This document shows positions 16,411 through 41,923 of a stretch of DNA of 64,000 bases, piece by piece. The stretch is from Escherichia coli (lineage in GTDB: Bacteria; Pseudomonadota; Gammaproteobacteria; Enterobacterales; Enterobacteriaceae), in the NCBI RefSeq assembly GCF_003334305.1, contig NZ_QOWS01000004.1. The stretch is one strand, 5' to 3'. The stretch's first letter is position 1; each line of letters begins with the position of its first letter. The position numbers were made by a program, and so were the translations under genes. The notes beneath the pieces were generated by a model that saw only the letters and a list, made by a program, of their open reading frames with translations, was not told the origin of the DNA and did no database searches.

Positions 16411-17775
16411 ATGTCCACAATTACATTGTTATGCATTGCGTTAGCTGGCGTAATCATGCTGTTGCTGCTGGTCATCAAGGCAAAGGTACAACCATTCGTT
16501 GCTCTGCTCCTCGTCAGCCTGTTAGTCGCACTTGCGGCGGGTATACCGGCGGGCGAAGTGGGTAAAGTGATGATCGCCGGGATGGGCGGTGTGCTTGGTT
16601 CCGTCACTATTATTATTGGTCTGGGCGCTATGCTGGGGCGTATGATCGAACACTCTGGTGGTGCAGAGTCACTGGCTAATTATTTCAGTCGCAAGTTAGG
16701 TGACAAACGAACTATCGCTGCGCTGACTCTGGCAGCGTTCTTCCTCGGTATTCCCGTCTTCTTTGATGTCGGCTTTATTATTCTTGCGCCAATCATTTAC
16801 GGTTTTGCCAAGGTTGCCAAAATATCGCCACTCAAATTTGGCCTGCCTGTCGCTGGAATCATGCTAACTGTTCATGTGGCGGTACCGCCGCATCCAGGCC
16901 CTGTCGCCGCAGCGGGGTTACTCCACGCAGACATCGGCTGGCTAACCATCATCGGTATTGCGATTTCTATTCCCGTAGGGATTGTTGGCTACTTTGCAGC
17001 GAAAATAATCAATACGCGCCAATATGCGATGTCGGTGGAAGTACTGGAACAGATGCAACTGGCTCCGGCCAGTGAGGAAGGCGCAACAAAATTAAGCGAT
17101 AAAATAAATCCACCGGGCGTCGCGCTGGTCACCTCGCTAATTGTTATTCCTATCGCGATTATCATGGCGGGTACGGTTTCCGCAACACTGATGCCGCCTT
17201 CGCATCCCCTGCTTGGTACGCTACAGCTGATCGGCTCACCAATGGTAGCTCTAATGATTGCGCTGGTGCTGGCATTCTGGTTATTGGCTTTACGTCGCGG
17301 CTGGAGCTTACAACACACCAGCGACATTATGGGCTCAGCCCTTCCCACTGCGGCGGTAGTGATTTTGGTTACTGGTGCTGGAGGGGTATTTGGCAAAGTG
17401 CTGGTGGAATCGGGCGTCGGCAAAGCCCTTGCCAATATGCTACAAATGATTGACCTGCCTCTGTTACCAGCCGCATTTATTATTTCACTGGCTCTGCGTG
17501 CATCGCAGGGGTCAGCAACCGTAGCAATCCTGACAACCGGCGGGTTACTCTCAGAAGCGGTGATGGGATTGAATCCGATTCAGTGCGTATTGGTGACGCT
17601 GGCAGCCTGCTTTGGTGGGCTTGGCGCGTCACATATTAATGACTCAGGGTTCTGGATTGTGACCAAATATCTGGGGTTGTCGGTAGCAGACGGTCTGAAA
17701 ACCTGGACAGTGTTAACGACCATTCTCGGTTTTACCGGATTCTTAATTACCTGGTGCGTATGGGCGGTAATTTGA
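16411..17775 (+). CDS. ygbN: GntP-family permease
   Basis: 454 aa, highly hydrophobic multi-pass protein. Confidence 0.88.
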   Translation: MSTITLLCIALAGVIMLLLLVIKAKVQPFVALLLVSLLVALAAGIPAGEVGKVMIAGMGGVLGSVTIIIGLGAMLGRMIEHSGGAESLANYFSRKLGDKRTIAALTLAAFFLGIPVFFDVGFIILAPIIYGFAKVAKISPLKFGLPVAGIMLTVHVAVPPHPGPVAAAGLLHADIGWLTIIGIAISIPVGIVGYFAAKIINTRQYAMSVEVLEQMQLAPASEEGATKLSDKINPPGVALVTSLIVIPIAIIMAGTVSATLMPPSHPLLGTLQLIGSPMVALMIALVLAFWLLALRRGWSLQHTSDIMGSALPTAAVVILVTGAGGVFGKVLVESGVGKALANMLQMIDLPLLPAAFIISLALRASQGSATVAILTTGGLLSEAVMGLNPIQCVLVTLAACFGGLGASHINDSGFWIVTKYLGLSVADGLKTWTVLTTILGFTGFLITWCVWAVI

Positions 17776-17784
17776 CCTTAATAA

Positions 17785-17815
17785 AAAGGTCCGATGGGCA
17801 TCGGACCTTTTATTT
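17785..17815. terminator. Bidirectional rho-independent terminator between ygbN and decarboxylase operon
   Basis: aaaggtccgatg-gg-catcggaccttt, 12-bp perfect stem followed by T-rich run. Confidence 0.65.
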
Positions 17816-18050
17816 AACGCTTACCTTCCACCAGCAGCGGCGGGATGCTCGGCACCATTGGCGCGTCATCAATATCTTTCTGCGTCATGCGGAACGCTTC
17901 GGGATAATGTTCGCGGCTGGTACGGCGCAGCGGTTCGGTATCGCGCCAGGTATAAAGGCAATGCTGGCACTGATATACCGTCCAGACATCTTTCACCGGC
18001 GATTTCGCCATCACTTCAATCTGTTCATCGGCACAACGTGGACAAATCAT
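17814..18050 (-). CDS. ecdD: Small zinc-ribbon subunit of UbiD-type hydroxyarylic acid decarboxylase (EcdD/VdcD/BsdD family)
   Basis: 78 aa with CPRC...CQHC; immediately downstream of the UbiD-like gene. Confidence 0.75.
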   Translation of the reverse strand: MICPRCADEQIEVMAKSPVKDVWTVYQCQHCLYTWRDTEPLRRTSREHYPEAFRMTQKDIDDAPMVPSIPPLLVEGKR

Positions 18051-18060
18051 CTTCTTCTCC

Positions 18061-19488
18061 TTATTTACGTGCAGCCAGCATAGCGGTCAGTTTTTCAGCC
18101 CAGGCTTTGGTTTCCGGTAAATCCACCACCGGTTGGCTGTAGTGACCACGGTTGTCCGGGGCGACAGGCGTAGTGGCGTCGATAATCAGCTTGTCGGTGA
18201 TCCCCGCAGGGCTTGAGCCTGGATCGAGTTCCAGCACGGACATATTCGGCAACTGCACCAAATCCCCTGCCGGGTTCACTTTCGAGGAGAGCGCCCACAT
18301 CACCTGCGGCAGGTTGAACGGGTCAACGTCTTCATCGACCATAATCACCATCTTCACGTAGCCCAGACCATGCGGCGTGGTCATTGCGCGCAGGCCCACC
18401 GCGCGGGCAAAGCCGCCGTAGCGTTTTTTGGTGGAGATAATCGCCAGCAGGCCATGGGTGTACATGGCGTTTACCGCCTGCACTTCAGGGAACTCGGCTT
18501 TCAGCTGCTGATACAGCGGCACGCAGGTGGCTGGCCCCATCAGGTAGTCGATTTCGGTCCACGGCATACCGAGGTACAGCGATTCGAAAATCGGCCTGGT
18601 GCGGTAAGAGACTTTATCGATGCGCACCACGGTCATGTTACGCCCGCCGGAGTAGTGCCCGGTAAACTCACCGAACGGCCCTTCGATTTCGCGTTTACGG
18701 CTTTCGATAACCCCTTCGAGGATCACTTCTGAACCCCACGGCACATCAAAACCGGTCAGCGGGGCGGTGGCGATCGGGTACGGGCTTTCACGCAGCGCGC
18801 CTGCCATTTCATACTCAGACTGATCGTATTTCAGCGGCGTGGCCCCCATCAGCGTGATGATCGGATCGTTACCGAGCGTGATCGCAATCGGCAGATCTTC
18901 ACCGCGCTCTTCTGCTTTATGCAGATGCAGGGCGATATCGTGCATCGGCACCGGTTGCAGGCCGAGCTTACGCTTGCCCTTCACTTCCATGCGGTAGATG
19001 CCGACGTTCTGCTTGCCGAAGTTATCTGGGTCGAGCGGATCGCGGGAAACCACGCAGGCTTTGTCGAGATAGAAACCGCCATCGCCATCGTTTAAACGAA
19101 ACAGCGGCAGGATATCGAACAGGTTAATCTCTTCGCCATCGACGGTGTTCTGCGCCCAGGCTGGATTGGCGCGGCGCTCCGGGGCAATCGGGAAGTTATC
19201 CCAGCGGCGGATAAACTCATCAATCTGCTTTTTGACCGGGGTGTTTGGTGGCAGGCCAAGGGAAATCGCGTGGTTCTGCCAGGAACCGATGGTATTCATC
19301 GTCACGCGGGCATCGGTAAAGCCGCGAATATTATCAAACCACAGCGCGGGCGCGCCGTCGCCGATACGCCCGGTGGCGTTAGCTGCTGCTGCCAGATCCG
19401 GCTCAGCGTTCACCTCTTCGCTGATTTTCAGTAACTGGCCGTGGTCATCAAGCGCCTGTAAAAAGCTGCGTAAATCATCAAATGCCAT
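18061..19488 (-). CDS. ecdC: UbiD-family reversible (de)carboxylase (EcdC/VdcC/BsdC type)
   Basis: 475-aa ORF recognised as a UbiD-family decarboxylase; ATGA overlap with the upstream UbiX-like gene. Confidence 0.85.
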   Translation of the reverse strand: MAFDDLRSFLQALDDHGQLLKISEEVNAEPDLAAAANATGRIGDGAPALWFDNIRGFTDARVTMNTIGSWQNHAISLGLPPNTPVKKQIDEFIRRWDNFPIAPERRANPAWAQNTVDGEEINLFDILPLFRLNDGDGGFYLDKACVVSRDPLDPDNFGKQNVGIYRMEVKGKRKLGLQPVPMHDIALHLHKAEERGEDLPIAITLGNDPIITLMGATPLKYDQSEYEMAGALRESPYPIATAPLTGFDVPWGSEVILEGVIESRKREIEGPFGEFTGHYSGGRNMTVVRIDKVSYRTRPIFESLYLGMPWTEIDYLMGPATCVPLYQQLKAEFPEVQAVNAMYTHGLLAIISTKKRYGGFARAVGLRAMTTPHGLGYVKMVIMVDEDVDPFNLPQVMWALSSKVNPAGDLVQLPNMSVLELDPGSSPAGITDKLIIDATTPVAPDNRGHYSQPVVDLPETKAWAEKLTAMLAARK

Positions 19489-20081
19489 TATTCATTCTCC
19501 TGAGAAAAATTCCGGGCCTGCGGCAATCCTTGCCAGCGCCTGGCATGGGGATGTTCGAGGCCAAATTTATCCAGCACGCGGGCTACCACATGGTGGACAA
19601 TGTCATCTACCGTTTCGGGATGGTTATAAAAGGCAGGCATCGGCGGCACCATCGCCACGCCCATGCGTGAAAGTGCGAGCATATTTTCGAGATGGATGGT
19701 GCTAAGCGGCATTTCACGCGGCACCAGCACCAGTTTGCGGCCTTCTTTGAGCACGACGTCCGCCGCGCGCCCTACCAGGCCATCGGCGTAACCAGCGCGG
19801 ATACCGGCGAGCGTTTTCATACTGCACGGAATAACGATCATGCCGTCGGTACGAAAAGAACCGGATGAGATGATCGCCGCCTGATCCGCCGGGTTATGGC
19901 TGAAGTCTGCGAGGGCAGCAACATCGCGAGCGCTGTAAGGCGTTTCCAGTTCAATGGTGGTTTTCGCCCACTTCGACATCACCAGATGAGTCTCGACATT
20001 CGGCATCTCCCGCAGCGCTTGCAGTAATGCCACACCAAGAGGCGCACCGGTAGCCCCTGTCATCCCGACGATCAGTTTCAT
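19488..20081 (-). CDS. ecdB: UbiX-family flavin prenyltransferase (EcdB/Pad1 type)
   Basis: 197 aa starting MKLIVGMTGATGAPLG. Confidence 0.85.
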   Translation of the reverse strand: MKLIVGMTGATGAPLGVALLQALREMPNVETHLVMSKWAKTTIELETPYSARDVAALADFSHNPADQAAIISSGSFRTDGMIVIPCSMKTLAGIRAGYADGLVGRAADVVLKEGRKLVLVPREMPLSTIHLENMLALSRMGVAMVPPMPAFYNHPETVDDIVHHVVARVLDKFGLEHPHARRWQGLPQARNFSQENE

Positions 20082-20097
20082 TGCTTATCCTCTTAAT

Positions 20098-20113
20098 TGT
20101 TCGTATACGAACA
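20098..20113. promoter_or_regulatory. Perfect 16-bp palindrome, candidate MarR-family operator
   Basis: tgttcgtatacgaaca lies 17 bp upstream of ecdB ATG in the divergent promoter region shared with the MarR-like gene. Confidence 0.5.
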
Positions 20114-20227
20114 TTATTATTAACATACTCCTTCATTTCCACAGCGGCAAGGATTGAAAAGTAACAACATCTTCTTCGTCACTAAAAAACCGCTATGATA
20201 GCGACAGAGAATTAGCCCGGAGTTTAC

Positions 20228-20635
20228 ATGGCGTTACGAAATAAAGCGTTCCATCAGTTACGACAGCTTTTTCAGCAGCACACGGCTCGCTGGCAGCACG
20301 AGTTACCTGACCTGACCAAACCACAGTACGCGGTGATGCGCGCCATTGCTGATAAACCTGGTATCGAACAGGTGGCACTGATAGAAGCAGCTGTCAGCAC
20401 CAAAGCAACGTTAGCAGAAATGTTGGCAAGAATGGAAAATCGTGGCTTAGTCAGACGTGAACATGACCCCGCTGATAAGCGGCGACGCTTTGTCTGGTTG
20501 ACTGCCGAAGGCGAAAAGATACTTGCTGCGGCGATACCCATTGGTGACAGCGTGGATGAGGAATTTTTGGGGCGTTTGAGTGGAGAAGAGCAGGAGCTGT
20601 TTATGCAGCTGGTGCGCAAGATGATGAACGCATAG
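20228..20635 (+). CDS. MarR/SlyA-family transcriptional regulator
   Basis: 135 aa; divergent from the decarboxylase operon. Confidence 0.85.
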   Translation: MALRNKAFHQLRQLFQQHTARWQHELPDLTKPQYAVMRAIADKPGIEQVALIEAAVSTKATLAEMLARMENRGLVRREHDPADKRRRFVWLTAEGEKILAAAIPIGDSVDEEFLGRLSGEEQELFMQLVRKMMNA

Positions 20636-41660: not shown

Positions 41661-41923
41661 TCTTGCCTCCCTGCAAAGAAGAGACTAACATTCGAATTGT
41701 TTGGGTTCGAACGTAAGCCTCAGGTTGATAGAAATATCGCCTGGGGCTTTTGTCCATCTGGAACCTCGCGAATGCTTAACGCCAGACAGCCTCAAGCACC
41801 CGACGCCATTCTATACCTGATAATTCTTCCAGCGGCGTTCACGTTTAAAATCAGGAATACTGCTCGCAAAATAAAAACGCCCCCATCATTTCTGACAGAG
41901 GCGTTTAATTTATCCGGCAATAT

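Follow-up and report, generated by a model that had tools for sequence, protein, structure and literature searches.

A palindrome between ecdB and a divergent MarR-family gene of Escherichia coli is very probably the HosA operator, with a 14-bp core kept across enterobacterial hosA loci

What does an exact palindrome do when it lies between two divergent genes, and is it read by the regulator that one of these genes encodes? This question is raised by the 16-bp sequence TGTTCGTATACGAACA at positions 20098-20113 of the window, by which we mean the whole 64-kb stretch of E. coli DNA that was analysed. A sequence-only reading had described this element as an exact 16-bp palindrome, placed 17 bp upstream of the ecdB start codon in the divergent promoter of a decarboxylase operon and a MarR-type gene, and had proposed that it is the operator of the adjacent regulator, possibly with phenolic acids as ligands. 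The description of the element is accurate: TGTTCGTATACGAACA is identical to its own reverse complement over all 16 bp, and as the minus-strand gene ecdB has its ATG at 20081..20079, 16 nt intervene and the near edge of the palindrome is at -17. The two ORFs are indeed divergent, and the gap between ecdB and the MarR-family gene comprises 146 bp, exactly 20082-20227. In the window, TGTTCGTATACGAACA is the only perfect 16-bp palindrome, but the chance expectation for such palindromes per 64 kb is 0.98 by analytic calculation and 1.28 by first-order Markov simulation. As the count in the window thus about equals chance, palindrome statistics for the window were dropped as support, and the argument rests on location and conservation. 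For the 146-bp gap alone, the chance expectation that can be derived from the per-pair match probability is 146 x 0.25^8, i.e. ~0.002.

The genes on both sides of the palindrome can be assigned with some precision. The 3-kb stretch around it recurs with 100% identity in many E. coli chromosomes and was found in ~2380 of 5426 complete E. coli genomes, and at the identical loci RefSeq annotates the subunits B, C and D of a non-oxidative hydroxyarylic acid decarboxylase, a MarR-family regulator, and the GntP-family transporter YgbN. The first gene of the operon, ecdB (19488..20081, minus strand), encodes the 197-aa subunit B, a UbiX-family flavin prenyltransferase that scores 308.9 bits against the NCBIfam model VdcB NF041206 (cut-off 290), in agreement with RefSeq. 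It is followed on the same strand by ecdC (18061..19488), whose start overlaps the ecdB stop and whose product, the UbiD-family decarboxylase subunit C, reaches 788.7 bits with VdcC NF041204 (cut-off 650), and by ecdD (17814..18050), which encodes the small subunit D (VdcD NF041205, 121.2 bits, cut-off 30). The ygbN gene at 16411-17775 faces the end of ecdBCD in convergent orientation, and no HosA box was found ahead of it in the window.

On the other side, divergent from the operon, the MarR-family repressor gene (20228..20635, plus strand) encodes a protein of 135 aa that matches the entry 'Transcriptional regulator HosA' (PDB 8AGA) with E = 3e-83. Only three differences, P81A, I98V and G119A, occur in 134 aligned residues, and two of them, P81A and I98V, are common to the UMN026-type allele, of which 102 residues were compared. 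With that allele, the HosA of the window shares 100 of 102 residues in the N-terminal and DNA-binding part. Judged by these protein matches, the adjacent MarR-type regulator is HosA. The ORFs past hosA were recognized by eye from their translations as rpoS, nlpD, pcm and surE, and these neighbours identify the locus as the polymorphic mutS-rpoS region.

For HosA, an operator has already been described. According to later papers that cite it, including two preprints on HosA structures, the study of Roy & Ranjan 2016 (Biochemistry 55:1120; doi 10.1021/acs.biochem.5b01163) reported that HosA of the uropathogenic E. coli strain UMN026 represses the non-oxidative HAD operon as well as its own gene, and that 4-hydroxybenzoic acid (4-HBA) acts as inducer by binding to HosA, which disrupts DNA binding and leads to derepression. 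The same citing papers relate that the palindromic HosA site lies downstream of the transcriptional start site (TSS) of the operon, and that a steric block to RNA polymerase had been suggested; in what the cited HosA papers relate, 4-HBA is also a substrate of the encoded decarboxylase pathway. Binding of HosA was later demonstrated by EMSA and biolayer interferometry (BLI) with a 43-bp DNA probe that contained a 14-bp TFBS, from which 4-HBA released the protein, and ITC gave a KD of 4.74 uM (PMC6261655, Science Advances). The EMSA was repeated by a second group (PMC6694116, Nature Communications).

How does this published site relate to the palindrome of the window? The supplementary oligonucleotides of PMC6261655 give the site in the context AATAAC-GTTCGTATACGAAC-AATTAAGAG, and positions 20099-20112 of the window are base for base the core of these probes and of the UMN026-type genomic allele. 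A 1-base gap in the alignment of probe and genome is due to the probe end AAACAATG and not to the box. Table S1 of PMC6261655 additionally shows, on both probe strands, an imperfect 15-mer, GTTTCGTATACGAAC, which contains an extra T; this version was rejected, as the genomes have the 14-mer GTTCGTATACGAAC, which was settled when five E. coli alleles, among them the UMN026-type, were aligned. Going by these genomic alleles, the 15-mer arose in typing or in text extraction, and anyone who copies the oligonucleotide could be misled by it. The proposal that the palindrome is the operator of its MarR-type neighbour is therefore borne out, as its inner 14 bp are the published HosA site, and the comparative analysis described below agrees. 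Also the expectation of a phenolic acid ligand was right, as binding, release by 4-HBA, and repression have been published for a near-identical allele, and the EMSA with and without phenolic ligand that had been suggested as a check is already in the literature (PMC6261655). As to operator, regulator, ligand and mode of action, the HosA system has thus been known since its publication in 2016, and the HosA site already serves as a part in biosensors for 4-hydroxybenzoate and parabens. The sequence-only reading had picked out a true operator from the letters alone.

The extent of the functional unit can be judged from the conservation of the site. Eighty loci encoding HosA relatives with 98% down to 60% identity were sampled from more than 20 genera, including Escherichia, Citrobacter, Salmonella, Klebsiella, Enterobacter, Kluyvera, Kosakonia, Phytobacter, Lelliottia, Leclercia, Atlantibacter, Rahnella and others, and the window together with the 74 loci in which a B-subunit gene is divergent from hosA gave 75 regions for position-wise comparison. 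The motif GTTCG-N4-CGAAC, which in the window is GTTCGTATACGAAC at 20099..20112, is present with zero or one arm mismatch at all 80 hosA loci. Of the 75 regions, 72 have arms without any mismatch, and the three others, all of them Rahnella loci, deviate by a single base; only one of the ten arm positions varies at all, with G in 72 of 75. Substitutions inside the 14-bp box are almost completely restricted to the four central bases, which read TATA in 30, TACA in 22, TATG in 10, TGTA in 9, CATA in 3 and TGTG in one of the regions. Accordingly, the information content per column amounts to 1.8-2.0 bits for the arms and 1.1-1.8 bits for the centre, and the flanking columns have 0.1-1.5 bits, with the sole exception of position +16, an A in 74 of 75 regions (1.9 bits). 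The spacing between core and start codon is 15-19 nt in most loci. The most conserved segment of HosA itself, in an alignment of 81 homologues, comprises residues 58-72 in the predicted recognition-helix region, with a conservation of 0.93 versus 0.67 at the C-terminus, and this conservation runs parallel to the invariance of the arms.

The outer base pair that extends the symmetry to 16 bp behaves differently. At the outer 5' position, T occurs in 40, C in 29, A in 5 and G in one of the 75 regions, a symmetric T.A pair is found in only 26 of them, and even within E. coli the position can be T or C. Because this outer pair is neither conserved across genera nor fixed in E. coli, the functional unit is 14 bp long. 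The 16-bp palindrome at 20098..20113 is thus real as a sequence, but the unit that is conserved and that has been used in experiments is the inner 14 bp at 20099-20112, and this box is to be regarded as the operator proper. It is present as a single copy in the window, where further HosA boxes were not found beyond chance, with one 1-mismatch match at 41699 versus 2.5 expected. In four natural Escherichia loci, including that of E. coli BroCaecum-55, a central A-to-G exchange results in GTTCGTGTACGAAC, which breaks the perfect symmetry, and the centre of the operator therefore evidently tolerates change. The 14-bp unit and the map of its tolerant positions should be useful for the engineering of HosA-based sensors.

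Some loci deviate from the usual arrangement. The distance between hosA and the B-subunit gene is 145-199 bp in 73 of the 74 loci and 598 bp in the remaining one, which belongs to Enterobacteriaceae bacterium LSJC7. Compared to the usual ~170 bp, something, possibly an insertion, may separate hosA from the operator in this organism, and the HosA box is still positioned 16 nt from the ecdB ATG. Six loci lack a B gene, and there hosA directly faces the C-subunit gene, in front of which the HosA box has been kept, with perfect arms in four and one mismatch in two cases. These loci are from six species of Pluralibacter, Superficieibacter, Cedecea and some Rahnella, and as the UbiX-like gene is missing, the organisms presumably rely on another flavin prenyltransferase.

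In many species, a second HosA-like element can be recognized. This distal box, G-N2-CG-N4-CGAAC, e.g. GATCGTGTACGAAC, was detected in 35 of the 75 regions when up to two arm mismatches were allowed. Its distance to the proximal box, on the upstream side, is 56-57 bp and that to the ecdB ATG ~72-77 nt; 4 nt remain between its end and the predicted -35 hexamer of ecdB, and the corresponding position of the window would be ~20155-20168. Its carriers are mostly not Escherichia but Klebsiella, Enterobacter, Kluyvera, Lelliottia, Leclercia and others; in Escherichia, the distal box is degenerate or absent, and the intergenic region is ~25 bp shorter. From the arrangement of these motifs, one may tentatively consider a two-box architecture that serves repression by two dimers or allows the hosA and ecdB promoters to be controlled separately, and from which Escherichia would have lost the distal box to retain a single operator, although we regard this as rather doubtful. 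If it were true, the single-operator layout of E. coli would be a reduced form of a two-box layout that is common in related genera. No description of such a two-box architecture was found in the later HosA papers covered here; the layout is the only possibly new element of the present analysis, and the in-silico survey of Roy & Ranjan 2016 may possibly include it. A compensation of the lost distal box by the 16-bp extension was considered and rejected, as there is no association (Fisher p = 0.09) and the trend is opposite.

The position of the box can also be considered relative to the promoters. For ecdBCD, a -35 hexamer TTGCCG at 20145..20150 and a -10 hexamer TATGTT at 20122..20127, both on the minus strand, can be inferred from the cross-genus alignment, in which TTG of the former and TA...T of the latter are invariant. 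The pattern TTGnnn-17-TAnnnT is found in 74 of the 75 regions, in 73 of which it lies 7-11 nt upstream of the box. A promoter TGGAAA-17-AATAAT, which a consensus scan had placed such that it overlaps the edge of the palindrome, was discarded as the main promoter, as its hexamers are not conserved, unlike those of TTGnnn-17-TAnnnT. With the conserved hexamers, the TSS of ecdBCD would be near 20115, 2-3 nt before the box, which would thus cover approximately +3 to +18, i.e. it would be located in the initially transcribed region without overlapping the -35 and -10 hexamers. This predicted position agrees with the published location 'downstream of TSS', as the work of Roy & Ranjan 2016 is related by later papers. 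Between box and start codon, the Shine-Dalgarno sequence GAGG can be read at 20089..20092 on the minus strand, 7 nt before the ATG of ecdB, and GAGG recurs at this position in other genera.

On the hosA side, a probable -10 hexamer TATGAT is found at 20194..20199 on the plus strand, inside the 6-1-6 inverted repeat CGCTATGATAGCG at 20191-20203. This repeat is invariant in the E. coli alleles, and a pattern scan reports a terminator-like element here on the minus strand. It was also considered as a second HosA operator, but its arms are unlike those of the HosA box. A function as minus-strand terminator was rejected as well, as across genera only TAT[G/C]AT is kept, at a fixed distance to the hosA ATG (27-32 nt, in 67 of the 75 regions). 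This selective conservation is the reason why CGCTATGATAGCG is better read as the hosA -10 region, and most likely the repeat simply holds the hexamer.

Taken together, we conclude that the palindrome is the operator at which HosA represses ecdBCD until 4-HBA arrives, to which we assign a probability of roughly 93%. To this conclusion, the present sequence comparison contributes the identity of the regulator, the identity of the site, and the conservation of the site and of its position. Mechanistically, a HosA dimer would read GTTCG and CGAAC, two arms with a centre-to-centre distance of 9 bp, across a 4-bp centre that tolerates exchanges. The protein would then occupy the first turn and a half of the transcribed DNA, directly before the ribosome-binding site, and as the site is just downstream of the ecdBCD promoter, bound HosA would block RNA polymerase at initiation or at promoter escape. 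In this bound state, the operon for a 4-hydroxybenzoate/vanillate-type decarboxylase would be off, and binding of 4-HBA would cause HosA to leave the DNA, whereupon the operon could be transcribed. The allele of the window differs from 8AGA by three residues and has T instead of C at the outer flank, and presumably it behaves likewise.

Could the palindrome, instead of being a protein binding site, act mainly as RNA? If transcription starts near 20115, the entire palindrome would be part of the transcript, which folds to a 6-bp stem with a 4-nt loop, and such a 5'-terminal hairpin might stabilize the ecdBCD mRNA or modulate access to the Shine-Dalgarno sequence. The variable positions would be in the loop and the invariant ones in the stem, a pattern that is expected of a hairpin too, and as the arms are invariant, there is no covariation that could tell a DNA site from an RNA stem by sequence alone. 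However, the hairpin has little stability (-5.8 kcal/mol, z = -1.3, a level also reached by 23 of 200 shuffled sequences) and does not involve pairing to the Shine-Dalgarno sequence, and the stable G+C-rich stem and the compensatory changes that characterize structured 5'-UTR hairpins or Rho-independent terminators were not seen, the latter in none of the 75 regions. Moreover, the arms are frozen in sequence and not merely in pairing, which points to a base-specific reader, and the distal motif copy found at 35 other loci keeps the CGAAC arm in a position that should be untranscribed if both promoters have been placed correctly, being upstream of the ecdB -35 as well as of an inferred hosA -35 that was read by eye in one locus. 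A mainly RNA-based function is therefore very unlikely, and the hairpin may have a secondary role at most.

It is likewise most unlikely that another regulator, e.g. CRP or a protein of the GntR/FadR-type, uses the palindrome and that its MarR neighbour is coincidental. CRP sites have the outline TGT-N10-ACA (TGTGA-N6-TCACA), and GntR/FadR sites have a GT-N-AC core. Compared by eye with these consensus sequences, TGTTC-N6-GAACA does show the outline TGT...ACA, and the GTATAC in CGTATACG resembles the GntR-family core. In the half-site TGTTC, however, the critical G and A of TGTGA are replaced by T and C, and the window palindrome thus lacks the conserved G:C at position 4 of each half-site of a CRP binding site; in addition, the outer T of TGT is the very position that varies (see above), so that the outline vanishes in many species. 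In case of GntR, the central GTATAC is the variable part of the box, although a GntR core would require these very bases to be constant. All 80 loci furthermore have the box together with hosA, and direct binding of HosA to this DNA site has been published (PMC6261655, PMC6694116), which argues against a different reader and also against a function that is restricted to RNA. As chance alone yields about one perfect 16-bp palindrome in 64 kb, one could in principle assume a fortuitous palindrome without function in this AT-rich intergenic DNA, or else a bidirectional terminator-like hairpin, as a pattern scan flags the plus strand with a T-rich run after the palindrome. The probability of this is practically negligible: the box is kept at a fixed position in all 80 loci while the flanks drift, and this conservation refutes a chance origin, the stem is of low stability and contains no more than 3 G-C pairs, and no plus-strand gene ends upstream that would need a terminator.

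The HosA operator of the window can finally be compared with known systems. Its closest counterpart is the HosA operator of E. coli UMN026, which has the same 14-bp core GTTCGTATACGAAC in the same position between hosA and the B-subunit gene and is served by the same regulator (100/102 identity over the part compared). In UMN026, a C directly precedes the core on its 5' side, whereas the allele of the window has a T, by which the perfect symmetry is extended to 16 bp, and a few bases of the flanks and of the Shine-Dalgarno region differ as well. Outside of HosA, PcaV of Streptomyces coelicolor offers a similar arrangement: it is a ligand-released repressor of an aromatic-acid catabolic operon, with a palindromic operator in a divergent intergenic region, and the sequence of this operator presumably differs from that of HosA. 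PcaV (PDB 4FHT/4G9Y) is among the closest solved HosA relatives (E = 3.9e-17) and, like HosA, a MarR-family repressor that answers a hydroxybenzoate-type ligand, but it belongs to a different phylum, responds to protocatechuate, and controls the pca operon. More generally, the operators of MarR, SlyA, OhrR and HucR are, like that of HosA, short palindromes or pseudopalindromes that are read by a winged-helix dimer, and operators of the MarR family are typically located at or just after the promoter of a divergent target, from which small phenolic ligands release the protein. What sets the HosA operator apart from these generic sites are the arms GTTCG and CGAAC, which are specific to HosA, and its predicted position downstream of the -10 hexamer, clear of both promoter hexamers.
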